Source of the DNA: an uncultured Kofleriaceae bacterium | GTDB taxonomy: Bacteria > Myxococcota_A > Polyangia > Haliangiales > Haliangiaceae | Reading direction: 5' to 3' | NCBI GenBank assembly: GCA_964617845.1 | Contig: CAZUAR010000003.1 | Coordinates: 56,518 to 69,907, forward strand | Length of the DNA stretch: 13,390 nucleotides | Notes under the pieces: model-generated | Databases searched by the model: none | What the model was told of the DNA's origin: nothing | What the model saw: the letters and a program-made list of their open reading frames with translations, nothing else | Shown: piece by piece, positions 1 through 12,612 of the stretch | How positions within the stretch are numbered: the first letter of the stretch is position 1 | How the letters are laid out: each line of letters starts with the position of its first letter | Program-made: the position numbers and the translations under genes

Positions 1-177
1 CATCGTCGGCGTCTGCGGCATCGTCGGCGTCTGCGGCATCGTCGGCGTCTGCGGCATCGTCGGCGTCTGCGGCGTCGGCGCCGGCTGCGGTTGAGGCTGT
101 GGAGCCGGCGCCTGCGCGAGAGCGGAGCCGGCGGTAAGCGAACAGAACGCGATCAGACCAAGGCGCGAGATGCCCAT
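1..177 (-). CDS. Secreted protein (5' part only; gene continues past window start) with Sec signal peptide and tandem PQTPTM repeats
   Basis: Seen in sequence. ATG at 177-175 on the minus strand, with a GGGGGAA Shine-Dalgarno-like run 6 nt upstream. Hand translation gives MGISRLGLIAFCSLTAGSALA|QAPAPQPQPQPAPTPQ(TPTMPQ)n: a Sec-type signal peptide (n/h/c regions, ALA-Q cleavage site) followed by Pro/Thr/Gln-rich repeats. The frame is open to position 1. It is too short (59 codons in-window) to appear in the ORF track. Product unknown. Confidence 0.45.
   Translation of the reverse strand, partial: MGISRLGLIAFCSLTAGSALAQAPAPQPQPQPAPTPQTPTMPQTPTMPQTPTMPQTPTM
2..73. repeat. Four perfect, contiguous copies of the 18-bp unit ATCGTCGGCGTCTGCGGC; array may continue past the window edge
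   Basis: Seen in sequence. Positions 2-19, 20-37, 38-55 and 56-73 are identical, followed by a degenerate GTCGGCGCCGGCTGCGG. On the minus strand the unit is in frame and encodes PQTPTM. This is a coding minisatellite, not a CRISPR array: there are no spacers. Confidence 0.9.
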
Positions 178-320
178 GTGTTGTTCCCCCGTCACCAGTA
201 AACGGGAGATCGGCGTCGCGTATCCATCGTGCTCACCGTGAGTCACGGGTGAGCGTTTCGGGTAAGCCTGGGTGTTCTCGACGAGAGCTAACGCAATGCT
301 CGGATCAAGTGGTCTGAGCG

Positions 321-1055
321 TTAGCGGCCTTGCGTCATCTTCAGCATCACGAGCGGCGTCTTCGCGATGATGCCGAGCTCGGTGCGCAGGAACGTACCCA
401 GGTTCTCCAGCGACGCGGTGTACGCGAGGTCGTAGAGCAGCTTGATCCGCATGTCGTCGGCGAGCGAGCCCTTGGTCTCGTCGAGCTGCCACGGGTTCTG
501 CAGCGTCGACGCGAGCTTTCCGATCTCCGATCCCTCGGGGATCGAGCCCGTGTAGCCGAGCGAGATCTGCGCGAGGCCCGTGATGCCGGGCTTCACGTCG
601 CGCATGCGCTCCTCGAACAGCGGGATCGCGTAGGAGAGCTGCTGGAGCAGCTCGGGGCGCTCGGGGCGCGGGCCGACGAGCGACATCTTTCCGCGCAACA
701 CGTCCCAGAACTGCGGCAGCTCGTCGAGCCGCGACTTGCGGAGGAACTTGCCGACGCGCGTGATGCGAGGATCATCGGCGCCCGCGACGACGACGCCCGT
801 GAACTTCTCCGCGTCCGGGATCATCGTGCGAAACTTGTGCATCTCGAACTCGTCGAACTCGTAGGTGCGCACGCCGTTCGCGCGCGTGACCTTCTTGAGT
901 GACCCCGCGCGGCGCTGCTTGAACATCACCGGGCCGGGGGAGTCGATGTAGATCGCAGCCGCGATGATTGGCAGGAGCGGCGCGGTGAGCACCATGCCGA
1001 CGGTGGCTCCGAGGATGTCGATCGCACGCTTCGCGATTTGAACGGGTCTTCGCAC
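321..1055 (-). CDS. Polyprenyl-phosphate sugar-1-phosphate transferase (bacterial sugar transferase family, PglC/WbaP C-terminal type); priming glycosyltransferase
   Basis: Seen in sequence. Family motifs are present: one N-terminal hydrophobic helix (ILGATVGMVLTAPLLPIIAAAIYI), then KFRTM, DELPQFWDVLRGKMSLVGPRP and KPGITGLAQI. The 90 residues of the ORF-track frame upstream of this are Arg-rich non-coding-like, so I put the start at the in-frame GTG at 1055-1053 (VRRPVQIAKRAIDILG...). A CTG at 1073 is the alternative. The stop is at 321. Confidence 0.8.
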   Translation of the reverse strand: MRRPVQIAKRAIDILGATVGMVLTAPLLPIIAAAIYIDSPGPVMFKQRRAGSLKKVTRANGVRTYEFDEFEMHKFRTMIPDAEKFTGVVVAGADDPRITRVGKFLRKSRLDELPQFWDVLRGKMSLVGPRPERPELLQQLSYAIPLFEERMRDVKPGITGLAQISLGYTGSIPEGSEIGKLASTLQNPWQLDETKGSLADDMRIKLLYDLAYTASLENLGTFLRTELGIIAKTPLVMLKMTQGR

Positions 1056-1210
1056 GAAGTGGTCTTCATGCAGACGCGAGACCAAGCGCAATTCGCAGGA
1101 GCTCCGCAGGTCATGCCGATGCAGAAGCGCACGTTGCGATCGAATCGCACGGGACGACGTGCGCGAGTGCCTCGAAGGTTCGCGTCGACGCGTGGCACGA
1201 GTGTTGATGT
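1056..1210. promoter_or_regulatory. Divergent intergenic region between the priming transferase gene (minus) and the kinase/STAS-led polysaccharide operon (plus); probable divergent promoters
   Basis: Inference from gene arrangement. It contains a short inverted repeat TGCGAT-N3-ATCGCA at 1135-1149. No promoter consensus could be assigned confidently in this high-GC sequence. Confidence 0.35.
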
Positions 1211-1678
1211 GTGTCCGGCGCGATGGCCGACAAGATCTGGCTGACCGTCCCCGGCGCGTTGCGCTATCGCGCGCTCGCCGTGCGCGTCGTCGCGGAGGCG
1301 GCGCGGTTGGTCTCGGGATCGCCACGCCGCGACGAGAACGATCTGCTCGCGAGCGACGTGCGCGACCCGTTCGATACGGCGGTGGTCAGCGCGTTCATGG
1401 AGATCTTCAACAACGTCGCGATTCACGCGTACCGGCGCGAAGCGACCGGCCGCATCGAGATCTCGATCACCGCCGGAGATCGCGAGATCGTGATCGAGGT
1501 TCTCGATCACGGCAGGCCGTTCGATCCGTCCAAGGTGCCGGCGCTGCCGTCGGAGCTGGACGATGCATCGCTCCCCGAGGGCGGCATGGGCATCCACATC
1601 GCGCGAACGATGCTCGACGACGTCTCGTATCAGCCCGGCCCACCGAACAAGTGGCGACTGTCGAAAGTGAGGACCTGA
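1211..1678 (+). CDS. RsbW/SpoIIAB-like anti-sigma factor / GHKL serine protein kinase (HATPase_c)
   Basis: Seen in sequence. N-box (AFMEIFNNVAIHAY), G1 (VLDHGRPFD) and G2 (EGGMGIHIARTM) boxes of the GHKL ATPase fold are present, and the size (155 aa) is typical of RsbW/SpoIIAB. GTG start at 1211; an ATG at 1220 is the alternative. Stop TGA at 1676-1678. Confidence 0.8.
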   Translation: MSGAMADKIWLTVPGALRYRALAVRVVAEAARLVSGSPRRDENDLLASDVRDPFDTAVVSAFMEIFNNVAIHAYRREATGRIEISITAGDREIVIEVLDHGRPFDPSKVPALPSELDDASLPEGGMGIHIARTMLDDVSYQPGPPNKWRLSKVRT

Positions 1679-1983
1679 TGATGACACCGTATGAAGTTTC
1701 TCGGTCGACCGATGCGACGCGGCTCGTGGTGCGCGGCTCGCTCGACATCAACACCGCGCCGGCGCTCGCCGAGGAGATCGACAAGATCATCGAAGCGAAG
1801 CCGACGAAGGTCGACGTCGATCTGACGCCGCTCGATCTCATCGACAGCTCGGGCGTCGCGGCGCTCGTGAAGCTGTACAAGGGCATTCGCAGCGCCGGCG
1901 GCCGCATCGCGATCTCGGGCGCGCGCGATCAGCCGCTCGCGATCTTCAAGCTGCTGCGCATGGACAAGGTCTTCGACCTCTAG
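1678..1983 (+). CDS. STAS-domain anti-sigma-factor antagonist (SpoIIAA/RsbV-like)
   Basis: Seen in sequence. The 101-aa protein carries the conserved phosphorylatable-serine motif LIDSSGVAALV and the STAS fold pattern. ATG at 1678 overlaps the upstream TGA by 1 nt (TGATG). AAGTGAGGA Shine-Dalgarno 7 nt upstream. Confidence 0.85.
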   Translation: MMTPYEVSRSTDATRLVVRGSLDINTAPALAEEIDKIIEAKPTKVDVDLTPLDLIDSSGVAALVKLYKGIRSAGGRIAISGARDQPLAIFKLLRMDKVFDL

Positions 1984-1989
1984 AACGCC

Positions 1990-3285
1990 ATGCTGCGCGT
2001 TCTCGCGATCACGAAGATCTTCCCCAACGCCGCCGAGCCGCTGTCTGCCCCGTTCAATCGGCAGCAGTTCGCAGCGCTCGCGCGGCACTGCTCCCTCGAG
2101 GTGATGGCCACGATCCCGTGGTTCCCGGGTGCGAGCCTCGTCCACGGCTCGAGCGCGGGAAAGCTCGTCGGTGTTCCCGGCGAGGAGACGATCGACGGCA
2201 TCACCGTCACCCATCCGCGCACGCTCTTCGTGCCGCGCCTCGCCCACGCGACGTGGGGGCCGCTGTACGCGGCGTCGATCGCGCGTGCGGTGATGCGCTA
2301 TCGGGGACGCGTCGACGTCGTGCTCGGCTCGTGGGCATACCCCGACGGGTTCGCGGCCGTGATCGCGGCGCGCATGCTCGGTGTGCCGTGCGTCGTGAAG
2401 CTGCACGGGAGCGACATCAACCAGATCGCGAAGCTGCCGGGTCCTCGCAAGCTGCTCGGGTGGGCGTTGCCGAGGGCCGCGCGCGTCGTCGCGGTGAGCC
2501 GCGCGCTCGCCGACGAGGTCGCGACGCTCGGCGTGCCGCGCGACAAGATCGCGATCGTCATGAACGGCGTCGATGCGTCGCTGTTCCATCCGCGCGATCG
2601 CGCGGGTGCGCGCGTGGAGCTCGGGCTCGACGAGAGGCCGCTCGTCCTGTACGTCGGCAACCTCAAGGCGGACAAGGGCGTCCTCGACCTCGCGAAGGCG
2701 TGGGAGCGCGTCGCCGCGCAGATGCCCGATGCGCGGCTCGCGATCGTCGGCGGTGGTCCCGCCAAGGACGAGCTCGCGGCCGCCGTCGAGCGGTTCGGCG
2801 GCAAGCTCGGCGAAGGTCGAGCGCGCTGTGCGAAGGATGATCGCGTGCTGCTCCTCGGCCCGCGGCCGCTCGCGGAGGTTCCGCTGTGGATGGCCGCGGC
2901 CGATGTCGTCACGCTGCCGAGCCACGCGGAGGGCACGCCCAACGTCGTGCTCGAGGCGCTCGCGTCGGGTAGGCGCGTGGTCGCTACCCGTGTCGGCGGC
3001 ATCCCGGATCTCATCACGCGAGGCGAGCTCGGCGCGCTGGTACCGCCGCGCGATCCCGACGCACTCGCCCGTGCGCTCGCGCTCGCGCTGCGCACACCGT
3101 ACATCCCCGCCACGGTCGCTGCTCTCGGCGCACGGGGTGGTTGGGACGCAAGTGCCTCCGCCCTGCACCAGGTGCTGCTTGGCGCGGCGAGTGCTTCGCA
3201 ACCGGGGACGTCATGGAGCGCCCCTCCCTCTCCCAGCTCGGAGACCGCTGGTACTCGTCCGAGGAGCGCATCACCGCCGCGATGA
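1990..3285 (+). CDS. Glycosyltransferase family 4 (GT-B; Glyco_trans_4 N-domain plus Glycos_transf_1 C-domain)
   Basis: Seen in sequence. N-terminus MLRVLAITKIFPNAAEP is typical of GT4. The C-domain has the EX7E-type region (PSHAEGTPNVVLEALASGRRVVATRVGGIP). ATG at 1990 lies 6 nt after the STAS stop. The last ~25 aa are low-complexity and overlap the next gene, so the exact C-terminus is uncertain. Confidence 0.85.
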   Translation: MLRVLAITKIFPNAAEPLSAPFNRQQFAALARHCSLEVMATIPWFPGASLVHGSSAGKLVGVPGEETIDGITVTHPRTLFVPRLAHATWGPLYAASIARAVMRYRGRVDVVLGSWAYPDGFAAVIAARMLGVPCVVKLHGSDINQIAKLPGPRKLLGWALPRAARVVAVSRALADEVATLGVPRDKIAIVMNGVDASLFHPRDRAGARVELGLDERPLVLYVGNLKADKGVLDLAKAWERVAAQMPDARLAIVGGGPAKDELAAAVERFGGKLGEGRARCAKDDRVLLLGPRPLAEVPLWMAAADVVTLPSHAEGTPNVVLEALASGRRVVATRVGGIPDLITRGELGALVPPRDPDALARALALALRTPYIPATVAALGARGGWDASASALHQVLLGAASASQPGTSWSAPPSPSSETAGTRPRSASPPR

Positions 3286-4328
3286 TCACGGAGCTGCAAC
3301 GCGTGCGCAGGCGCGCGGCGGCTCGGCCGTTCTTGACGCTCTTTCTCGCGGCACTCCTCACCTCGGCGCTCGCGATCGTGATCGTGACCAAGCACCGCAA
3401 GCTCGAGGCCGAGGTCGTCCTCGCGCTCACCGAGGGCACGCTCTCGAGCGACCACTCCGGTCTCGCGGCGCAGGAGCTGCGCGAATACGTCTCGTCGGTC
3501 CTGTTGTCCGACAAGAACGTCGCCGAGGTGATCGTGGATCAGGACCTCTATCGCATCCGCGAGCGCATGGGCATGGCCTACGCCATCACCGAGCTGCGGG
3601 AGCAACTCGAGGTCGACGTGTGGAAGAACACGTTCGTCTACTACCGCGACTCCGAGTCCAACGCGCGCAAGTCCGCGCGCATCGGCCTCACGGTGATCGA
3701 CACCGACCCCGACAAGGCATATGGCATCGCGCGCGCACTGGCTGACATCATGATCCGCACGCACGACGCCGAGCGCTTGAAGCTCACGAGTGCGCTCGCC
3801 GCACAAGTGCAGCTGATGCGCGAGACGGTCGAGTCGGAGCTGGAGAAGCTCGCCCACCGGATCAGCGAGAAGCAGGCGGCGATCGGCATCGCGTACAAGG
3901 ACGGCAAGAACGGCGTCGCGGCGGCGCTGATGGTCGACCTCGCGGATCTCGACGCGCGCCACAAGGACCTCGAGACTCAGCTCTCGCAGATCGCCACGAG
4001 CCGCGACGCCGTCGCCGACCAGATCTCCGCGGCCGGCCTCGACATCACGCTCGAGGTCGTCGCCGAGAAGCGACCGGATCGCCCTGTCACGTCGACGTTC
4101 GCGCTCGTGCTCGTCATGTGCGTCGTCGCGACAGGCGCGCTGATCGCGTCGGCGATGGTCGTCAGCACGTTCGATCCGCGCGTGCATCACGCCGACGACG
4201 TCGCCCGGCTCGGGCTTCCTGTCCTCGGTCACGTTCCCGCTTTCACCGGCGATCGCGTCGGTTCGTTACGCAAGCGCGGCGCACGCCGCAGTAGCTCAGG
4301 GGCAAGACTATGGCACTCGCACCGATAA
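3213..4328 (+). CDS. Polysaccharide co-polymerase-like inner-membrane protein (PCP/Wzz-like; two TM helices flanking a coiled-coil periplasmic domain), paralogue 1
   Basis: Seen in sequence. TM1 is FLTLFLAALLTSALAIVIVT. A roughly 270-aa hydrophilic, helical, Ala/Glu/Leu-rich domain follows. TM2 is FALVLVMCVVATGALIASAMVV. A C-terminal cytoplasmic tail carries DDVARLGLPVLGHVP, which resembles the BY-kinase-activating tail of PCP-2b proteins such as CapA and YwqC. ATG at 3213; a TTG at 3141 is an unlikely alternative. Family assignment rests on topology and the tail motif only. Confidence 0.55.
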   Translation: MERPSLSQLGDRWYSSEERITAAMITELQRVRRRAAARPFLTLFLAALLTSALAIVIVTKHRKLEAEVVLALTEGTLSSDHSGLAAQELREYVSSVLLSDKNVAEVIVDQDLYRIRERMGMAYAITELREQLEVDVWKNTFVYYRDSESNARKSARIGLTVIDTDPDKAYGIARALADIMIRTHDAERLKLTSALAAQVQLMRETVESELEKLAHRISEKQAAIGIAYKDGKNGVAAALMVDLADLDARHKDLETQLSQIATSRDAVADQISAAGLDITLEVVAEKRPDRPVTSTFALVLVMCVVATGALIASAMVVSTFDPRVHHADDVARLGLPVLGHVPAFTGDRVGSLRKRGARRSSSGARLWHSHR

Positions 4329-5818
4329 CTCCTCGCGACAAGCTGCAACGCATCACCGACCTCGCTCGCAAGACGGCGCGGTACTGGTGGATGATCGCTC
4401 TGTTCGCCCTCGTCGGCGGCGCGCTCTCGCTCGCGTTCGCGGTGTTCAAGCCGAAGAACTACCAGTCGTGGTCCACGCTGTTCTATCAGGAGCGAATCCA
4501 GTCGAGCCTGATGTCGCCGAACCGCGAGGAGATGGTCCAGCGCAACATCGGCGATCGCTACCGCGAGCTGTTGCTCGCGCGCTCGCAGCTGATGCAGATC
4601 GTGACCGACCCGGCGCTCGATCCGTTTCCCGACGAGGACGATGTCGAGGTGAAGATCGACGAGCTGCGCAAGGTCATCAAGTTCGAAGCGCGTGGCGCGA
4701 ACGCCTTCCGTATCAACTTCCGCGACACGGATCCGGCGCGCGCGAAGCGAGTGACCGAGAAGCTGACCTCGATGCTGCAGGCCAAGGACGAGGAGCTCCG
4801 CAACGATCAGGCGACGCGCACGGTGAACTTCGCGACCACCCAGAAGGAGGCGGCGGCCAAGGAGCTCGCGAAGAGCGAACAGGCCCTCGCCACCTTCCTC
4901 GCCGCGCACCCCGAGTTCGCCGAGGAGACGAGCCAGGGCAACTCCGAGGGCGCGTCGATCCGCGCCATCCGCGAGCCCAAGACCAAGAAGACCGGTAACA
5001 GCCGCCTCTACGCGCTCGAGCGCCAGCGCCAGCGCATCCAGGCGCGCCTCGACGCGAGCCCCGACGGTCCTCCGGTGCGCATCATCGCGCCGCCGAGCCC
5101 CGAGCGCGTCGCCGCCGAGGCCGCGGCCAACGAGGCACAGCGCCAGCTCACCGCGGCGCAGCGCGAGCTCGACGGTGCACTCAGCCGGTACACGGAGAAG
5201 CACCCCGAGGTGATCAAGGCGCAGGCGAACGTCGCGGCCGCGCAACAGCGCTACCGCACCGCGCAGGCCGCGGTGCCGCCGCTCGTCGAGACCGCCGTCG
5301 CCCCGACGTCCAAGCAGGACCGCGAGAAGCTCGAGAAGCAGCTGGCGCAGCTCGAGGAGCAGATCGCGAACGCGCAGTCGTCCGGCGACAAGAAGGACGC
5401 GTCGCAGACCGACAAGACGACGAACTGGGTCGTGAAGCTCGAGACGGAGCACGCGATCCTTCGCCGCGAGGTCTCCGAGCAACGCGAGCGCGTCGGCTCG
5501 CTCGCCGCGTCGGTGTTCCGCGCGCAGATCGACGCGAGCCAGAAGCTCGCCGAGCAGGGCGGCCGGCTCTCCGTCGTCGATCCGGCGTTCAAGCCCGTGA
5601 AGCCCACCGGCCCCGGCAAGACGATCTTTCTCCTCGCCGGCATGATGCTGTTCCTGACGCTCGGCACGGGGCTCGCGCTCGGCCTCGCGATGATCGACGA
5701 CCGCATCTACCACCGCATCGACCTCGACAACCTCGGTATCGGGGTTCTCGCCGTGATTCCGCCCGCGCAGTCCCTCAAGGGACTGAAGCCGGCGCCGAAG
5801 AAGGAGCAGCGCAAGTGA
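4310..5818 (+). CDS. Polysaccharide co-polymerase, PCP-2b type (Wzz N-terminal domain, long coiled coil, C-terminal TM and basic cytoplasmic tail; no fused kinase domain), paralogue 2
   Basis: Seen in sequence. Wzz-type N-terminus [37 protein letters not shown] (the P-x-Y-x-S-x-S-like pattern after TM1). Extended Q/A/E-rich coiled-coil segment. C-terminal [26 protein letters not shown] followed by [15 protein letters not shown] and a Lys-rich tail. ATG at 4310 overlaps the upstream gene by 19 nt. Confidence 0.8.
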
Positions 5819-6636
5819 CCACGTCGCGACCCAGCCTGACGATGACCGCGATCGGTCTCGGCAACCACAACCCGCGCACCACGCTCACGCGTGGCTCGAT
5901 GTCGGCCGTCGATCCACGCGCCACCGTGGCACTCGCTCCGACCGAGGCGCGTCCCCCCAGCGCGGCCGCGTGCGAGGTGCAGGTGATGCAGCACCAGCTG
6001 CCACGCCACGCACGCTCCGACCGGCGCCTCGCCGTCGCCCTCGCGCCCGACTCGGCGCGCGCCGCCGCGTTCCGCGTGCTGCGCCACCACCTGCTCGAGC
6101 TCGGCAAGCCGCAGTGCGTCGTCGTGACCAGCCCGCAACGCGGCGACGGCAAGACGACGACCGCGATCAACCTCGCGTGCGCACTGTCCGAGTGCGGCCG
6201 TGCGAGGGTGCTCCTCGTCGAAGCGCACCTGCGCCGCCCGCAGCTCGCCGGCGTGTTCGAGTTCGTGCCGCCTCGCTGCTTCGCGGATCAGCTGCTCCTG
6301 CATCGCAAGGATCCGCTGTCGCCGTGGACGCTCGTCGAGATCCCCGAGCTGCACCTGCACGTCGGCGCGATCAACCCGAAGTTCGAGCGCGGCCAGCTCC
6401 TCGACGGCCCCGCGTTCTCCATCGCGATGGAGCGCCTGCGCGTCGCCGGCTACGACCACATCGTCATCGACGCGCCGCCCGTCCTCGGCTCCGCCGACGT
6501 GAACCTGATGGCCGACGCGGCCGACACGGTGCTGCTCGCTCTCCGCGCGCGCCGCTCGACCGCGCGCGACCTCCGCGCGGCGATCGATCAGATCGGCGAG
6601 CGCAAGGTCGGCGGCACGGTCCTGGTCGAGGAGTAG
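5815..6636 (+). CDS. BY-kinase-family P-loop ATPase (CapB/Wze-like) lacking the C-terminal tyrosine cluster
   Basis: Seen in sequence. N-terminal RK helix [11 protein letters not shown]. Walker [21 protein letters not shown] at about 6127-6159. Walker A' is [11 protein letters not shown] at about 6208-6240, where the canonical DxD has become E-A-H. Walker B is HIVIDAPPV. The protein ends at ...[14 protein letters not shown] immediately after the last beta-strand, with no Tyr-rich tail. GTG start at 5815 overlaps the upstream stop (GTGA); the start codon is uncertain, and in-frame ATGs lie downstream. Confidence 0.8.
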
Positions 6637-6652: not shown

Positions 6653-8107
6653 CTAGCGGCGACAGGTCGCGATCTCGATCAGCTCGCGCCGGCTCCGCTC
6701 CCACACGCGCTCGTCGGTCGGCCAACCAGCGACGGGCATCGTGCGAGCGACGACCATCGCGGTCGCCATCGGATCGCACGCCTTCGCGAGCTCGAGCAGC
6801 TCGCGATCCTGCTGCCCGCGCCGCAGGGCCGCGAGTCGAAGCGTCGGACGGCATCCGCCGTCGGCCGGTAGCGCGAGGACGCCGTCGAGGTTGCCGTGAT
6901 CCTCGCCGTCGTCGAAGCTGACGGGGTCGCGGAGGTCGAGCGCGCGGCCCGGCAGCGGCGCGCCCTTGCGGTTGTGGCGGTCGTGCCAGTACAGCGCGTC
7001 CCACACGTACCACTGCGGGATGCCATCGCGATGCATGAGCCAGCCCCATGTCCTCGGACCTGGGGTCTCGGCGTCGAGGATCATCGCGCCCGAGTACGGA
7101 GGAAGTCCGTTGTAGGCCCACGCGCCGCTCCGGGGCGCGGGTCGGAGCTGGATGAATTGATCGACGAGCCCGAGCCACTCCGGTCTGGGCGGTGCAGTGA
7201 CCGCGAAGCGGAACGTGTTCGGTCCACCGCCCGCGGCGCGGATCACCGTGCCGAGCGCGACGACGTCCTGGATGCGCTTCGCGGTCCGGGGCTCGTCGAT
7301 CGGAATCGCGAACGGCACGTGTCCCGTGCCCCTCGTGGCGGCGATCCAGGCACGCACCTCGTCGCCGGCCTTCGCCGGATCGGCGGAGATGACCACCGGC
7401 ACGTCGCGGATGCCCGCGAAGTCGGCCTTGCGGCTGGGCCACCAGTCGATGTGGATGTCGGGGGTGAGCAGCACGCCGTGATCGCGGAACATCGACATGC
7501 ACGCGCGTTCGGCGGCGCTGGGAACCGCGCGCGAGGGCATCGCGCCCTTCGAGGCCCATGCGAGCTCGCGAGGGTCTTCGTAGGCCCACACGCGCGGCGG
7601 ACGGGTCGGGATCGTGACGTCCGCGACGGCGAGCTCGACCGGGTATCGCGTGTCTCCGACGATCAGCGCGCCCTGCAAGCTCCCGATGGCCATCTCGCGT
7701 GGAACGCGAACCTCGACGTACCGCACGTGCGATGGGCTCGATGGCGATGGGCGCGGGATGAGGCCGTCCGCGTACCGCCCCTTCCCCGCGCTCGCGCCGT
7801 ACAGCCCGGGCGTCGAGGGGCGAGCGACCTCGATGGCCTCCACATCGAACACCCGCACGTCGACACCTTCGAGCTCGAAGACGATGGGCGCGTCGTTCGA
7901 TGTGACGACCTGAAGGCCGATCGTCTCGCCGCGCGCCGCGACCAGCGATAGCCGCTCGCCGTCGAACCACGGCGTGACACGCGGGAGCGGATCGCCGATC
8001 CGGTAGCGCGTCGACTCGCCGAGCACCGCGATCGATGGCCCTGGATCGGTCGCCCCGGCGGGATCGCAAGCAGCGAGCGCCAGGGCACAGGCGAGGACGC
8101 GCGACAT
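6653..8107 (-). CDS. Lipoprotein of unknown function (484 aa), candidate polysaccharide-active hydrolase by genomic context only
   Basis: Seen in sequence. ATG at 8107-8105. Lipobox MSRVLACALALAAC|D (LAAC, with +2 Asp). Natural, Trp/Tyr-rich composition (for example WAYNGLPPYSGAMILDAETPGPRTWGWLMHRDGIPQWYVWDALYWHD). The overlapping frames are Arg-rich artefacts. The ORF-track frame upstream of this ATG (to 8344) looks non-coding. I do not recognise a family. Confidence 0.65.
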   Translation of the reverse strand: MSRVLACALALAACDPAGATDPGPSIAVLGESTRYRIGDPLPRVTPWFDGERLSLVAARGETIGLQVVTSNDAPIVFELEGVDVRVFDVEAIEVARPSTPGLYGASAGKGRYADGLIPRPSPSSPSHVRYVEVRVPREMAIGSLQGALIVGDTRYPVELAVADVTIPTRPPRVWAYEDPRELAWASKGAMPSRAVPSAAERACMSMFRDHGVLLTPDIHIDWWPSRKADFAGIRDVPVVISADPAKAGDEVRAWIAATRGTGHVPFAIPIDEPRTAKRIQDVVALGTVIRAAGGGPNTFRFAVTAPPRPEWLGLVDQFIQLRPAPRSGAWAYNGLPPYSGAMILDAETPGPRTWGWLMHRDGIPQWYVWDALYWHDRHNRKGAPLPGRALDLRDPVSFDDGEDHGNLDGVLALPADGGCRPTLRLAALRRGQQDRELLELAKACDPMATAMVVARTMPVAGWPTDERVWERSRRELIEIATCRR

Positions 8108-8162
8108 CGTCCCAGGCGCAGCAAAGCCCGAGCCGGCCCGCAAATCGCAGAGCCACACGCCG

Positions 8163-9470
8163 ATGGCAACGCCAACCCGCGTAGAGACTCGGATCTCGCC
8201 GACGGAGGGCGATCCGTCGAGCGAGCGAGCGCAGAGCGACGCGCGCGCGGGCGCACGTGTGGCCGCGCAGCACGCGAGGGTCGTCGCTCCCGTCGAATCG
8301 CTGCCGATCATCGCGTTCGCGAAGGACTGGCACGAGGATCCCACGTCGAACCATCACGTGCTGCGCGAGCTCGCGAAGACGCGGCGCGTGCTGTGGCTCA
8401 ACTCGCTCGCGACGAGGACGCCGAGCCTCGCGAGCGGTCGCGACCTCGGCAAGATCAAGCGCAAGCTCGTCGAGTTCTCGAAGGGTCCGGTGAACGTCGA
8501 GAACGACCTGTGGGTGTTCTCGCCGCTCGTGCTTCCGCTGCCGCACGAGGCGTGGGCGCGATCGATCAACAAGCAGGTGCTACGCGCGACGATCCGTGGC
8601 CTGCGCTGGAAGCTCGGGATCGACAGGTTCCAGCTGTGGACGTTCCTCCCGAACAGCGCGGACTACGTCGGGATGCTCGGCGAGGAGTCGAGCGTCTACT
8701 ACTGCGTCGACGAGTGGTCGCTGTTCTCGTATCTGGATCGCGAGCAGACGGTCGCGGCCGAGAAGGCGCTGCTCGGCAAGGTCGATGCGGTGTTCGCGAT
8801 CAACCACGCGCTGGCAGAGGCGAAGCGAGGCGTGAACGCGTCGACGTTCGTGAGCCCGCACGGCGTGGATCACGCCCTGTTCGCGAGCGCGCTCGACGAG
8901 GCGACCGTGGTGCCGGCAGACATCGCCGCGATCTCGGGCCCGCGGATCGGGTTCTACGGGACGATCCGCGACTGGGTCGACCTCGAGCTCGTCGCCCATG
9001 TCGCGAAGGCGCGACCCGCGTGGTCGATCGTGTTGCTCGGCCAGGTGCTGTGCGATGCGAGTGCGATCGCCGGGCTGCCGAACGTTCACCTCCTCGGGCA
9101 GAAGCGGCACGACGAGCTGCCCGCGTACTGCAAGGCGTTCGACGTCGGCATCATTCCGTACCGGATCGATGACCGGATGACGTTCGTCAATCCGCTGAAG
9201 CTGCGCGAGTACCTGTCGGCGGGGTTGCCGGTCGTGTCGACGCCGGTGCCCGAGGTCGCGCGGTACCGCGAGTGGTGCCGGATCGCGGCGACGCCACCGG
9301 AGTTCGTCGAGGCGATCGAAGCGGCGCTCGCCGAGTGCAAACCGGCGACGCGCGCCGCGCGAAGCGCCGCGATGAAGAACGAGACGTGGTCGGCGCGCGT
9401 CGCCGACGTGATGCGAACTGTCGACGAGATCAGCCAGAGCAAACAGACCAAGGGAATGAAGGGAACATGA
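8163..9470 (+). CDS. Glycosyltransferase, GT-B fold (GT4/group-1 like)
   Basis: Seen in sequence. C-terminal nucleotide-sugar-binding region GIIPYRIDDRMTFVNPLKLREYLSAGLPVVSTPVPEV and the overall GT-B pattern. Start is uncertain: ATG at 8163 leaves only 55 bp to the divergent lipoprotein gene, a GTG at 8259 is the alternative, and the first ~40 aa are low-complexity. Stop TGA at 9468-9470. Confidence 0.75.
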   Translation: MATPTRVETRISPTEGDPSSERAQSDARAGARVAAQHARVVAPVESLPIIAFAKDWHEDPTSNHHVLRELAKTRRVLWLNSLATRTPSLASGRDLGKIKRKLVEFSKGPVNVENDLWVFSPLVLPLPHEAWARSINKQVLRATIRGLRWKLGIDRFQLWTFLPNSADYVGMLGEESSVYYCVDEWSLFSYLDREQTVAAEKALLGKVDAVFAINHALAEAKRGVNASTFVSPHGVDHALFASALDEATVVPADIAAISGPRIGFYGTIRDWVDLELVAHVAKARPAWSIVLLGQVLCDASAIAGLPNVHLLGQKRHDELPAYCKAFDVGIIPYRIDDRMTFVNPLKLREYLSAGLPVVSTPVPEVARYREWCRIAATPPEFVEAIEAALAECKPATRAARSAAMKNETWSARVADVMRTVDEISQSKQTKGMKGT

Positions 9471-11551
9471 GCACCAAGAAGCTGCGCGCCGGCATGGTCG
9501 GCGCAGGAAACATCTGCGAGTTCCACGTCGCTGCCATCCAGAAGCTGGCGAGCGCGCCCCAGAGCGAGGTCGAGCTGATCGGCGTCGCAGACCTCGACGC
9601 GGAGCGTGCCGCGGCGAACGCCGAGAAGTGGGGCACGCGGGCGTATGCGGATCTGGACGCGCTCGTCGCGGCGGGCGCCAACGTGATCCACGTGCTCACG
9701 CCACCCTCGTCGCACGCGGCGATCGCGCGCGCGGCGCTCGAGCGTAGATGCCACGTGCTCGTCGAGAAGCCGATCACCGAGGACGCCGAAGAAGCACACG
9801 CACTCGGCGAGCTGGCGGCGAAGAAGGGGCTGACGATCAGCTGCAACCACTCGCTGCTGTTCGACCCGCAGATCGTGCGTGCGCTCGACATGGTCAAGGC
9901 TGGCAAGCTCGGCGAGATCGTCGGCGTCGACATCCTGCGCGGAAGCGAGTACCCGCCGTACGAGGGCGGGCCGCTGCCGCCGTGGTACCGCGACGCGGGC
10001 TATCCGTTCCGCGACATCGGCGTGCACTGCCTCTATCTGATCCAGGAGCTGCTCGGGCCGATCACCAACGTCGACGCGAAGTGGCGCTCGCTCGGCGGCG
10101 ATCCGAACCTCGCGTTCGACGAGTGGCGCGCGCTCGTCGCGTGCAAGCGCGGCCTCGGGCAGCTGCAGATCACCTACAACACGAAGCCGATGCAGTCGCA
10201 GCTGATCATCCACGGCACCAAGGGCGTGCTGCGCGTCGATCTGTTCGCGATGTTCCACGGCAAGCGCGCGTCGACGCCGCTGCCCAAGGCGGCCGAGCGC
10301 TTGATCAACGCGTTCACCGATTCGCTGCAGCCGCTCGTCGACGTTCCGGTGAACGTCGTGAAGTTCGTGCGCAAGCAGGTGCAGTCGTATCAGGGCCTGC
10401 GCGACCTCGTCGCCGACTTCTACGCGCGGCTGCTCGGCAACAAGGAGCCGGCGGTCTCCGTCGACGACGCGGCCAACGTCGTCGCGTGGGTCGAGAAGGT
10501 CGCGCGCGCGGCCGACGCGGATCACGCGCGGAACCTGTCGCGGTTCCAGACGTCGGATCGGATCCCGTTCGTCGTGACCGGTGCGTCGGGGTCGCTGGGC
10601 AAGGCGGTCGTGAACCGCTTGCTCGCCGACGGACATCGCGTGCGCGTGTTCCAGCGCAAGATCCCCGCGCAGGCGCGCGAGGGCGTCGAGTACGTGTTCG
10701 GCAACCTCGGCGATCCGAAGGCGGTCGACAAGGCGATCCGCGGCGCCGAGGTCGTCATCCATTGCGGCGCGGCGATGAAGGGCGGCTGGCCGGAGCACAA
10801 GGGCGGCACCGTCGTCGGCACGCAGAACGTGATCGATGCGTGCAAGAAGCACGAGGTGCGGCAGCTCGTGCACATCTCGTCGATGTCGGTCGTCGATTGG
10901 GCCGGCAGCGCCGGGACCACCGTCGGCGAAGGCGCGGCGCTCGAGCCTCGCCCCGACGAGCGCGGCGCGTACACCCGCGCGAAGCTCGAGGCCGAGAAGC
11001 TCGTGCGCGAGGCAGCGGCGGGCGGCTTCCCCGCGGTGATCCTGCGCCCCGGGCAGATCTTCGGCGGCGGGATCCCGCTGATCAACGGCGCGGTCGCGCG
11101 CAACGCCGGCGGACGCTGGCTCGTCCTGGGCGACGGAACGATCGAGCTACCGTTGATCTATATCGACGATGTCGTCGACGCGATCATGCGCTCGGTGCAG
11201 CTGCGTCTCGTCAGCGGCGAGGTGATCCAGCTGATCGATCCCGAGAAGCTCACGCAGGCCGACGTGCTCGCGCTCGCCGGCGAGAACAAGCCGCAGCTCA
11301 AGGTGCCGCGCTCCGTCGTGTTCGCGCTCGGCAAGCTCAGCGAGCTGCCGCTCGGTGCGCTCGGCAAGCCGAGCCCGATCGCGCTGTACCGCCTGCAGTC
11401 GGCCCTCTCGCGCATGCACTACGGCAGCGACGTCGCCAAGAACGTCCTCGGCTGGGCGCCGCGCGTCGGTGTTCGCGAGGGCATTCGGCGCGTGACCGGG
11501 GCGGCGCCACGCGGCAGCGCGACACCCCCACTGCGCGTCGCGGCGCCTTGA
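9467..11551 (+). CDS. Fusion protein: N-terminal Gfo/Idh/MocA-family NAD(P)-dependent oxidoreductase plus C-terminal extended-SDR NAD-dependent epimerase/dehydratase-like domain (694 aa); putative nucleotide-sugar modifying enzyme
   Basis: Seen in sequence. ATG at 9467 overlaps the upstream stop (ATGA). Gfo/Idh/MocA Rossmann region MVGAGNICEFHVAAI and LVEKP at 9491 onward. A second Rossmann motif VVTGASGSLGKAVVNRLLADGHRVRVF at about 10566-10640, with the SDR catalytic pattern S (HISSMS) and YTRAK (YxxxK). The upstream 65 codons of the ORF-track frame are Arg-rich and non-coding-like. Confidence 0.8.
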   Translation: MSTKKLRAGMVGAGNICEFHVAAIQKLASAPQSEVELIGVADLDAERAAANAEKWGTRAYADLDALVAAGANVIHVLTPPSSHAAIARAALERRCHVLVEKPITEDAEEAHALGELAAKKGLTISCNHSLLFDPQIVRALDMVKAGKLGEIVGVDILRGSEYPPYEGGPLPPWYRDAGYPFRDIGVHCLYLIQELLGPITNVDAKWRSLGGDPNLAFDEWRALVACKRGLGQLQITYNTKPMQSQLIIHGTKGVLRVDLFAMFHGKRASTPLPKAAERLINAFTDSLQPLVDVPVNVVKFVRKQVQSYQGLRDLVADFYARLLGNKEPAVSVDDAANVVAWVEKVARAADADHARNLSRFQTSDRIPFVVTGASGSLGKAVVNRLLADGHRVRVFQRKIPAQAREGVEYVFGNLGDPKAVDKAIRGAEVVIHCGAAMKGGWPEHKGGTVVGTQNVIDACKKHEVRQLVHISSMSVVDWAGSAGTTVGEGAALEPRPDERGAYTRAKLEAEKLVREAAAGGFPAVILRPGQIFGGGIPLINGAVARNAGGRWLVLGDGTIELPLIYIDDVVDAIMRSVQLRLVSGEVIQLIDPEKLTQADVLALAGENKPQLKVPRSVVFALGKLSELPLGALGKPSPIALYRLQSALSRMHYGSDVAKNVLGWAPRVGVREGIRRVTGAAPRGSATPPLRVAAP

Positions 11552-12612
11552 TGCGCGCGGCGATGCGTGACGAGGTCCTCGCGTCGCGCGTGCTGCGCGG
11601 CGCCGTGATCCTCGCCGCGCTCGCATGCGCGGCGGCCGCGCGGGCCGACACGATCGTCACCGTGCAGCTGTCGCCGGACGGCCAGCAGCTCGCGCAGCAG
11701 CTCGGCGTCACGCCCGAGCAGCTCGCCGCGCAGGTGACGCGCGCGGTCGACGACGCGTACCAGACGGCGAACATCGAGGAGTTCCTCGAGTCGTTCGTCG
11801 ACGCGACGTCGTTCTCGTCGCGCGGCATCGGTGTCGACTACGCCTCGCAGCCGACGGGCTTCATCGCGGGCTTCGCGGTCAACCTCGCCGCCGCGGGCGA
11901 CCAGGAGCTGCGCGCCGACGAGCGCCCGACGGCGGGCCTCGCCGCGAACGTCTCGGTGCTCGTCGGGATGAACCTCGCCGAGTGGAAGCTGTCGCGTTGG
12001 ACGATCTTCGCGAACGGGTTCTATCGCAACGCGGAGCTCGAGCGCCTCGACGGCACGATCCTCAGCGCGGGCGCTCACGTGCAGTACACGATCATCCCCG
12101 CGCCCGCGGACGGCGGCACCGGGACGTTCGTGCGCTGGATCGGCCTCGCGGCGACGAGCGGCCTCGAGCTCACGCGCTGGTCGCTCGGCACGGGCTCCGA
12201 CACGCTGTCCACGGACTTCGACGTCGGCAGCGGCAACAACACCGCGCACGTCGACGTCGACTCGACAGGACAGCTCGATCTGCGCTCGCAGGCGATCACG
12301 GTGCCGCTCGAAGCGACCACCGGCCTGCGCGTCATGTGGCTCGCGACGCTCTACGCCGGCGTCGGTGTCGACTTCACGCTCGGCAACGCCGACGTCACCG
12401 CGAACATGAACGGCATCGCGCGCGCCGACGACGGCCGCGAGCTCGGCACGGTCGCCATCACCGGCGAGGGCTACGCGAACGGATCGCCCGCGACGCTGCG
12501 CGCGCTCGTCGGGCTGCAGCTGAACCTGTGGAAGCTGAAGCTGTTCTCGCAGCTCAACGCATCGCAGTCGCCCGCGGTGAGCGTCGCGTTCGGTCTCAAG
12601 TTCGTGCAGTAG
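11551..12612 (+). CDS. Secreted beta-rich protein, putative outer-membrane beta-barrel (candidate polysaccharide-secretion porin by context)
   Basis: Seen in sequence. ATG at 11551 overlaps the upstream TGA by 1 nt (TGATG); a second in-frame ATG sits at 11563. Signal peptide RVLRGAVILAALACAAAARA|DT. Many short amphipathic strands rich in W/Y/F (for example RWTIFANGFY, FVRWIGLAATSGLELTRWSLG, LRVMWLATLYAGVGVDFTLG). The C-terminus is AVSVAFGLKFVQ, with alternating hydrophobics and F at -3. Only the 3' third of the 954-aa ORF-track frame is real; the upstream part is an alternate frame of the fusion gene. Confidence 0.5.
   Translation: MRAAMRDEVLASRVLRGAVILAALACAAAARADTIVTVQLSPDGQQLAQQLGVTPEQLAAQVTRAVDDAYQTANIEEFLESFVDATSFSSRGIGVDYASQPTGFIAGFAVNLAAAGDQELRADERPTAGLAANVSVLVGMNLAEWKLSRWTIFANGFYRNAELERLDGTILSAGAHVQYTIIPAPADGGTGTFVRWIGLAATSGLELTRWSLGTGSDTLSTDFDVGSGNNTAHVDVDSTGQLDLRSQAITVPLEATTGLRVMWLATLYAGVGVDFTLGNADVTANMNGIARADDGRELGTVAITGEGYANGSPATLRALVGLQLNLWKLKLFSQLNASQSPAVSVAFGLKFVQ

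Follow-up and report, generated by a model that had tools for sequence, protein, structure and literature searches.

To our knowledge, control of bacterial polysaccharide synthesis by a STAS phospho-switch is known from three cases. The described system closest to the locus reported here is that of Anabaena PCC 7120, where All4160, a STAS domain fused to a Bac_transf enzyme, is phosphorylated on Ser74 by the RsbW-type kinase Alr3423 and dephosphorylated by the SpoIIE phosphatase HenR; the kinase switches All4160 off, the phosphatase switches it on, and an S74A allele bypasses henR (Harada, Matsuoka and Ehira, Mol Microbiol 2026, PMC13555669). The kinase gene all2284 adjoins all2285, which encodes another STAS-glycosyltransferase, and the authors consider STAS-Bac_transf fusions rare outside cyanobacteria and the mechanism lineage-specific (PMC13555669). 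Here we analysed a free-standing kinase-STAS gene pair in a stretch of 13,390 nucleotides (nt) from an uncultured Kofleriaceae bacterium (GenBank assembly GCA_964617845.1, contig CAZUAR010000003.1, positions 56,518 to 69,907 of the forward strand), hereafter called the window, where the pair heads an operon of polysaccharide genes beside a divergent gene for a small phosphoglycosyl transferase (PGT) of the Bac_transf family. The best reading is that this uncharacterised cassette is a split, putatively trans-acting form of the known STAS switch in a new phylum. The literature search brought up no paper on a free-standing kinase-STAS pair from a polysaccharide locus of myxobacteria.

Related switches have been described in other bacteria. 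In Vibrio fischeri, the STAS protein SypA acts at a level below transcription, on a partner that is still unknown (PMC10120452; PMC8256260), and this target has been sought for more than ten years. SiaABCD of Pseudomonas aeruginosa, composed of the HAMP-PP2C phosphatase SiaA, the RsbW-like kinase SiaB and the STAS-fold protein SiaC, is a switch without a sigma factor that controls aggregation and biofilm formation (PMC7647112, PMC8457831). For Nostoc punctiforme, the accounts cited in two of these papers describe HmpU, HmpV and HmpW as a PP2C, a STAS protein and a kinase of a motility and polysaccharide secretion locus, the STAS protein being thought active when dephosphorylated and its target being given there as unknown (cited in PMC8256260, PMC10120452).

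The features of the window that matter for the comparison are the following, with lengths in amino acids (aa).

321..1055, minus strand: small monotopic phosphoglycosyl transferase (PGT, Bac_transf), 244 aa, GTG start; Pfam Bac_transf 168.5 bits
1056..1222, no strand: divergent intergenic region between PGT and kinase, read from the sequence
1223..1678, plus strand: RsbW/SpoIIAB-type serine kinase, 151 aa, ATG start, with an in-frame alternative GTG at 1211
1400-1426 (N-box), 1505-1522 (G1) and 1580-1597 (G2), plus strand: ATP-binding motifs of the kinase, read from the sequence
1678..1983, plus strand: single-domain STAS protein, 101 aa; predicted phospho-acceptor Ser57 at 1846-1848, within DSSG at 1843-1854
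1990..3285, plus strand: GT4 glycosyltransferase; Pfam Glyco_trans_1_4 114 bits, Glyco_transf_4 72 bits
3282..4328, plus strand: protein 1 resembling polysaccharide co-polymerases (PCP1); no Pfam match, TIGR03007 36 bits over the C-terminal part
4310..5818, plus strand: PCP2, of Wzz/GNVR type; TIGR03007 140.6 bits (cut-off 278.85), with weak Wzz and GNVR matches
5815..6636, plus strand: P-loop ATPase resembling bacterial tyrosine kinases (BY-kinase-like), without a tyrosine cluster; TIGR03018 79 bits, AAA_31

Profile searches placed the kinase in Pfam HATPase_c_2 (PF13581; 73.4 bits, E 2e-20, cut-off 27.4) and the STAS protein in Pfam STAS (PF01740; 60.5 bits, E 1.6e-16, cut-off 22.6), in line with the initial annotation, which had named an RsbW/SpoIIAB-type kinase and a STAS antagonist with an intact DSSG motif. 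The catalytic motifs of the kinase (N-box E60..N63 N64..H68; G1 D95xG97xxF100; G2 G120 G121 M G) were invariant or nearly so among 28 orthologues. Across 46 sequences at 35-97% identity, E60, N63, H68, G97 and G123 were invariant, and N64, D95 and G121 were nearly invariant. The AlphaFold2 model of the kinase (pLDDT 89) had its best PDB fold matches in SpoIIAB (TM-score 0.72-0.81) and RsbW (0.67-0.89), and the catalytic domains (CA domains) of histidine kinases ranked far below them. By sequence, the PDB match was RsbW 6m36 (36.8 bits), with SpoIIAB also among the closest solved proteins. The top NCBIfam matches were likewise RsbW and SpoIIAB models, all far under their equivalog cut-offs (NF003144, 36.1 against 145 bits; TIGR01925, 27.9 against 135; TIGR01924, 26.7 against 155). 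These results showed that the kinase is a member of the RsbW/SpoIIAB fold family and not an orthologue of RsbW or SpoIIAB.

The STAS protein narrowly passed TIGR00377, the anti-sigma factor antagonist model (55.3 bits, cut-off 53.45), and stayed far under the cut-off of the SpoIIAA equivalog model (38 against 115 bits). Its closest solved relatives by sequence were TM1442, SpoIIAA and RsbV. Residues D56-S57-S58-G59 aligned with the DSSG motif of SpoIIAA, Ser57 being the first serine, which we take to be the equivalent of the phospho-acceptor Ser58 of Bacillus subtilis SpoIIAA. The motif xIDSSGVA was present in 80/80 STAS sequences, and the cassette STAS proteins also retained the distinctive C-terminal RDQPLAIFKLLRMDKVF.

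The genes of the operon are packed tightly. The kinase stop codon (TGA, 1676-1678) and the STAS start codon (ATG, 1678-1680) overlap by one base (TGATG), and the STAS stop codon (TAG, 1981-1983) is followed 6 nt on by the GT4 ATG at 1990. GT4 and PCP1 overlap by ATGA (3282-3285), PCP1 and PCP2 by 19 nt, and PCP2 and the ATPase gene by GTGA (5815-5818). Kinase, STAS, GT4, PCP1, PCP2 and ATPase genes form one operon on one strand, in which every junction is an overlap or a gap of at most 6 nt; the inverted order, the TGATG overlap and the gapless run into a GT4 gene, two PCP genes and an ATPase gene had been described in the same terms from the bare sequence, and the coordinates agree. The window has a G+C content of 66-73%, and its genuine genes tile it almost fully. 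Promoters of both the PGT gene and the kinase operon presumably lie in the intergenic region at 1056..1222. A scan of the window found no sigma-70-like site, and across loci this intergenic region (27-191 nt long) showed no promoter or operator conservation beyond the gene starts. Pfam and NCBIfam profile scans detected no sigma-factor, PP2C or GGDEF domain in any gene of the window.

A search for relatives of the kinase at E ≤ 1e-5 returned 844 proteins, and the best 120 of these, which were inspected, were all at least 70% identical, the named ones coming from Kofleriaceae. With one genome per GTDB species there were 109 kinase relatives, the best 80 of which made up the locus set (individual loci are given below by their L numbers). 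These 80 loci were all from metagenome-assembled genomes (MAGs) assigned to Kofleriaceae, Haliangiales, Myxococcales or "Deltaproteobacteria", with one labelled Acidobacteriota, so the myxobacterial-type origin proposed for the DNA held, its relatives being Kofleriaceae and Haliangiales MAGs. The window proteins were mapped onto the 80 loci by tblastn, and only loci with sufficient DNA on the relevant side were counted. The divergent PGT gene lay next to the kinase gene in 74/74 loci, STAS was present in 77/77 and GT4 in 72/72, followed by PCP1 in 66/69, PCP2 in 64/68 and the ATPase in 60/63. Kinase-STAS and STAS-GT4 spacings were mostly -8 to +8 nt, those between STAS and GT4 mostly -1 to +8. 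Sampling in the reverse direction, with 80 metagenome contigs retrieved through the PGT, gave a divergent upstream kinase in 64/64, STAS in 56/56 and GT4 in 38/40. Across the roughly 140 loci sampled in these two ways (species loci and PGT-side contigs), the pair was not separated from the PGT.

The three genes after GT4 behaved differently. The PCP1-PCP2-ATPase block was relocated behind the PGT, on the other strand, in L010 and L014, and L082-L084, the most divergent lineage (kinase 58-59% identical), had no PCP1, PCP2 or ATPase homologue in the 10 kb downstream of GT4; reading L082 open reading frame by open reading frame showed that the genes after GT4 are unrelated to the PCP and ATPase genes. 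The core unit of PGT and, divergently, kinase-STAS-GT4 is unbroken within the cassette family, and the PCP/ATPase block is separable from it. PGT, kinase and STAS each form a cassette-specific subfamily of their own. The neighbourhood survey proposed in the initial annotation turned out in favour of a conserved unit, the pair standing beside PGT and GT4 in every species locus with sufficient DNA on the relevant side. Eleven distinct annotated neighbourhoods contained no sigma-70-family and no GGDEF Pfam domain within ±8-10 kb, which agrees with the earlier proposal that the STAS protein serves the polysaccharide locus and not a nearby sigma factor. The ATPase and the PCPs, which had been suggested as targets, belong to the separable part (L010, L014, L082-L084), and the inseparable neighbours are the PGT and GT4.

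Several short contigs with cassette genes were binned elsewhere: L009 in Acidobacteriota, L096, P0313 and P0393 in Geminicoccaceae, and P0496 in Gemmatimonadaceae. As these contigs are short and may be misbinned, no spread beyond Myxococcota is claimed.

A phosphatase gene was found upstream of the cassette in many relatives. Among the 39 loci complete on both flanks, 26 carried a gene for a HAMP-SpoIIE (PP2C) protein within 10 kb of the kinase, 1-9 kb upstream. The closest relatives, L001 (kinase 97% identical) and L086 (91%), both encode this protein, of 568 aa, a few kb left of the PGT gene; it consists of a transmembrane segment, a periplasmic part of about 210 aa, a second transmembrane segment, a HAMP domain and a SpoIIE/PP2C domain in which the customary metal-binding motifs are present. 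Its companions are a divergent 184-aa PAS-only protein, an 845-aa TPR protein and a 299-aa protein. The first 293 nt of the window match L086 at 75% nucleotide identity, in a gene between the phosphatase module and the PGT; the matching L086 segment (8879-9121), which lies between the PP2C/TPR module and the PGT, corresponds to the region of a protein with PQTPTM repeats. Since the left edge of the window is syntenic with the PP2C-bearing L086, the source organism probably has the L086 arrangement, with the PP2C gene some 4-7 kb past the left end of the window. The statement that no PP2C gene accompanies the pair is correct for the window only and probably reflects where the window ends, given the HAMP-SpoIIE genes 1-9 kb upstream in 26/39 related loci. 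From this linkage we infer that the HAMP-SpoIIE protein may be the cognate phosphatase of the pair.

Window positions 1-178 (minus strand) encode the start of the PQTPTM-repeat protein, a secreted protein with a signal peptide and then four PQTPTM repeats, which correspond to a tandem repeat of 18 nt at nt 1-72. The PAS-only protein lies outside the window (L086 2293-2847, minus strand; L001 8499-9053, plus strand). It is the most conserved protein of the neighbourhood (median 88% identity, 32 species), has no PDB relative detectable by sequence, and keeps its place by the PGT in loci without SpoIIE (L003, L044, L051, L055, L056, L058, L069 and L088).

When compared with the All4160 module, the cassette shows the same set of parts: an RsbW-type kinase, a STAS serine next to a priming Bac_transf enzyme and, as a putative partner, a SpoIIE-type phosphatase, with no sigma factor. 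The two differ in that the cassette STAS is a free 101-aa protein and not the N-terminal domain of a PGT, while the PGT is a stand-alone 244-aa protein encoded by an adjacent, divergent gene. The candidate phosphatase of the cassette is a membrane HAMP protein, whereas HenR is a receiver-domain protein; moreover, GT4 is co-translated with STAS in the cassette, and the host belongs to Myxococcota. The All4160-Alr3423-HenR system (PMC13555669) is a closer precedent than Syp and HsbA, which the initial annotation had put forward.

The likeness to SypA lies in a single-domain STAS protein of a polysaccharide locus; SypA is active when unphosphorylated and controlled by an RsbW-like kinase and a PP2C (PMC10120452), as the cassette protein would be. 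SypE unites kinase, receiver domain and PP2C in one tripartite protein, whereas the cassette has a single-domain kinase of 151 aa and, in relatives, a separate 568-aa HAMP protein with the PP2C several kb off. Genes for a Bac_transf enzyme, a Wzz-like protein and a BY-kinase-like ATPase are also reported from the syp locus. Gene order and neighbours differ, the cassette pair lying between PGT and GT4, and orthology does not extend past the domain families. The "Syp-like arrangement" claimed for the window is an analogy and does not extend to the architecture, with its stand-alone kinase and separate HAMP phosphatase. SiaABCD shares the HAMP-PP2C, kinase and STAS-fold set with the cassette and its upstream module; however, Sia feeds a diguanylate cyclase encoded in its own operon and SiaC carries the phosphate on a threonine, while the cassette has no GGDEF gene and has enzymes of glycan synthesis as its constant neighbours. 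With the Bacillus systems RsbV-RsbW-SigB and SpoIIAA-SpoIIAB-SigF the pair shares the two folds, the catalytic and phospho-acceptor motifs and the closest solved structures; it differs from them by its inverted gene order, the lack of a sigma gene nearby and its equivalog scores, which lie far under the cut-offs. HmpU/HmpV/HmpW, compared here by description, are tied to hormogonium development and pilus-dependent motility and are not placed between a PGT and a GT4 gene.

The best explanation of these findings is that the pair constitutes the kinase and the phospho-acceptor of a three-part switch of the partner-switching type that serves one polysaccharide locus. It is very probable that the pair serves, at one level or another, to regulate this locus specifically. 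On the basis of established family chemistry and the domain-fusion precedent, the kinase would phosphorylate Ser57 and so turn the STAS protein off, and an envelope or periplasmic signal would activate the HAMP-PP2C, which would dephosphorylate it. The unphosphorylated STAS protein would then let the priming PGT and/or GT4 carry out the first committed steps of repeat-unit synthesis; the PGT is the proposed regulated enzyme, and GT4 is an alternative or additional one. Two wirings can be envisaged. In one, the STAS protein itself would bind the enzyme, doing in trans what the STAS domain would do within the STAS-Bac_transf fusions All4160 and XssP. In the other, the kinase would keep the enzyme inactive until STAS draws the kinase away, and the enzyme would stand where the sigma factor stands in the classical systems. 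Post-translational gating of polymer assembly, as suggested in the initial annotation, is plausible; for the narrower proposition that the switch controls PGT or GT4 after translation, we consider the chances about even. A bolder version, in which PGT or GT4 replaces the sigma factor in a true partner switch and the cyanobacterial fusions and the split cassette are two forms of one rule that would also name SypR as the target of SypA, is tentative and on balance doubtful.

More distant cassettes were recovered by a profile search of 1.84 billion representative proteins, which gave 330 representatives of the wider kinase family at E ≤ 1e-10. Its kinases, aligned over the full length at 35-49% identity, share three signatures: IRLxVPGxLxYRDLAxRVVAxACRL at the N-terminus, FDxxVVSAFSEAFNNIxIH in the centre and YxPGxPNxWxLxK at the C-terminus. 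L090, L096 and L098 (kinases 46-48% identical) again showed Bac_transf divergent from kinase-STAS-GT4; PCP-like genes and a ParA-like ATPase gene followed GT4 in L090 and L098, and the L096 contig stops one gene past GT4. In L091-L095 (kinases 42-44% identical) the kinase gene is divergent beside the same PGT subfamily (for example L093 9190-10453), in loci that also contain Wzy_C, Poly_export and Polysacc_synt genes, with a small SpoIIE gene standing alone 8 kb off. L097 is a second Kofleriaceae system, with kinase, GT4, SpoIIE and STAS inside a different glycan locus.

The PGTs of the distant cassettes are 60-77% identical to the window PGT, the kinases 42-58%. The cassette PGTs carry two insertions that XssP, PglC and the Pfam model lack, one of about 13 residues following the RAG motif and one of about 40 residues before the last helices (LGYTGxxxEGSEIxxLAxTLQNPxxxDExxGxLADDMRxKLLYDLAY). 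The AlphaFold2 model of the PGT is poor (pLDDT 61, below 50 in the insertion region), so that the insertions could not be placed on it, and PglC is the sole significant PDB fold match of this model. Synechocystis XssP, encoded on plasmid pSYSM, combines a STAS domain (residues 9-99) with Bac_transf (124-310); its catalytic domain shares 42% identity with the window PGT, which is of another subfamily.

Several observations weigh against control of PGT or GT4 by the switch. The link to PGT and GT4 rests on gene neighbourhood and on a domain-fusion analogy from another phylum. No BLASTP similarity was detected between the window STAS protein and the STAS domain of XssP, so the analogy holds only at the level of the domain family and is not one of orthology. 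No natural fusion of STAS to PGT or GT4 was seen in the family, and the best 120 PGT relatives were all single-domain proteins. L091-L095 have no STAS gene within ±10 kb, and a STAS-PGT contact cannot account for those loci; they favour some direct tie between kinase and PGT. The PP2C gene is absent from the window itself, and the HAMP-SpoIIE gene is missing within 10 kb in one third of the relatives with two complete flanks. All cassette members come from MAGs or metagenomes of uncultured organisms. A mirror-tree test over 59 loci, which compared PGT, kinase, STAS, GT4, PCP1, PCP2 and ATPase through partial correlations of their pairwise distances, was dropped as evidence: the certain pair STAS-kinase, which was the positive control, gave r = 0.08, with 0.49 for kinase-PGT and 0.57 for kinase-ATPase, and because this control failed the test is powerless to discriminate between the explanations. 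Separately, an apparent 498-aa STAS-GT4 fusion at L030 (10489-11985) was rejected as a frameshifted assembly with an internal stop.

Could the pair instead be a classical anti-sigma and anti-anti-sigma factor? The unphosphorylated STAS protein would then free a remote sigma factor that transcribes this locus among others, control would be transcriptional, and the position of the pair would reflect autoregulation. The closest solved relatives, RsbW, SpoIIAB and UsfX, are true anti-sigma factors and are joined by RsbV and SpoIIAA, the STAS protein passes TIGR00377, and the N-terminal helix of the kinase, which in SpoIIAB structures is the sigma-binding and dimer face, is very conserved. Classical rsb and spoIIA operons, though, include their own sigma gene and have the opposite gene order, whereas the eleven annotated neighbourhoods held no sigma-70-family domain. 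The equivalog scores (RsbW 36 against 145, SpoIIAB 28 against 135, SpoIIAA 38 against 115) also speak against this explanation, and a sigma regulator would not need tight, exclusive linkage to one PGT subfamily. We regard both this transcriptional role and the autoregulatory reading of the position as unlikely.

The separability of the PCP/ATPase block bears on a different proposal, that the BY-kinase-like ATPase, the PCPs or both are the target of STAS or the kinase, so that polymerisation or export and not initiation would be gated, on the model of the STAS protein MlaB and its ATPase partner MlaF. PCP1, PCP2 and the ATPase do follow GT4 in 60-66 of 63-69 loci and in L090 and L098, and there are weak MlaB-type matches (NF033618, 36 bits; 7ch8_K, 22 bits). 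The block has moved in L010/L014, however, and is missing behind GT4 in L082-L084 and also from L091-L095; the MlaB score is far under its cut-off (36 against 90) and lower than the SpoIIAA and TM1442 scores; and the ATPase lacks the tyrosine cluster, the usual seat of BY-kinase regulation. Kinase-ATPase distances co-varied (partial r 0.57), in the test whose positive control failed, and we hold an ATPase or PCP target to be distinctly unlikely. Least probable of the alternatives is an output elsewhere, such as a diguanylate cyclase, one of the accompanying PAS and TPR proteins, or a target in motility or development, with the location explained by co-regulation. It draws on the HAMP-PP2C, RsbW-like kinase and STAS-fold layout of SiaABC (PMC7647112), on the PAS-only protein (median 88% identity) and TPR protein that accompany the PP2C, and on the frequency of STAS proteins with unknown non-sigma targets (PMC8256260); on the other side, no GGDEF or obvious effector domain was seen in the annotated neighbourhoods, and the pair is translationally coupled to GT4 and was never apart from the PGT in about 140 loci.

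The cassette, with its parts encoded separately beside a dedicated priming enzyme, was seen in well over 100 environmental genomes and contigs from a phylum other than cyanobacteria. If the switch acts on PGT or GT4, control of the first committed step by phosphorylation would be general and not cyanobacterial, the split system would let the contact be examined in trans, and the Bac_transf enzyme SypR would become a candidate partner of SypA. The cassette also brings to light an uncharacterised envelope-sensing input, the HAMP-PP2C with its PAS and TPR partners.

As for the rest of the operon, PCP1 is only weakly PCP-like by sequence. All 59/59 ATPase orthologues lack tyrosine in their last 25 residues; they retain Walker A and B, while their Walker A' has the unusual sequence LLVE.H.RRP in place of the customary Asp pair. 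Given the missing C-terminal tyrosines and this Walker A', the ATPase is not a canonical BY-kinase and probably not an autophosphorylating tyrosine kinase. The window genes include no Wzx flippase, Wzy polymerase or OPX/Wza gene, and the type of pathway is accordingly not established for this locus, which had been called a Wzx/Wzy locus; Wzx, Wzy and OPX genes all lie beside the distant cassette L093.

Three further genes of the window were noted. The gene at 6653-8344 (minus strand), whose true start is probably near 8104, encodes a protein that resembles lipoproteins and falls into no Pfam or NCBIfam family. It shares 38% identity with the product of the L097 gene at 1085-2635, which has a weak GH123_cat match, and may be a glycoside hydrolase that accompanies these cassettes. 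A 694-aa fusion of a Gfo/Idh/MocA oxidoreductase with an NAD-dependent epimerase is encoded at 9467-11551 (plus strand). The gene product at 11548-12612 (plus strand) shows weak DUF6588/Lsa36-like similarity and is possibly an outer-membrane protein.

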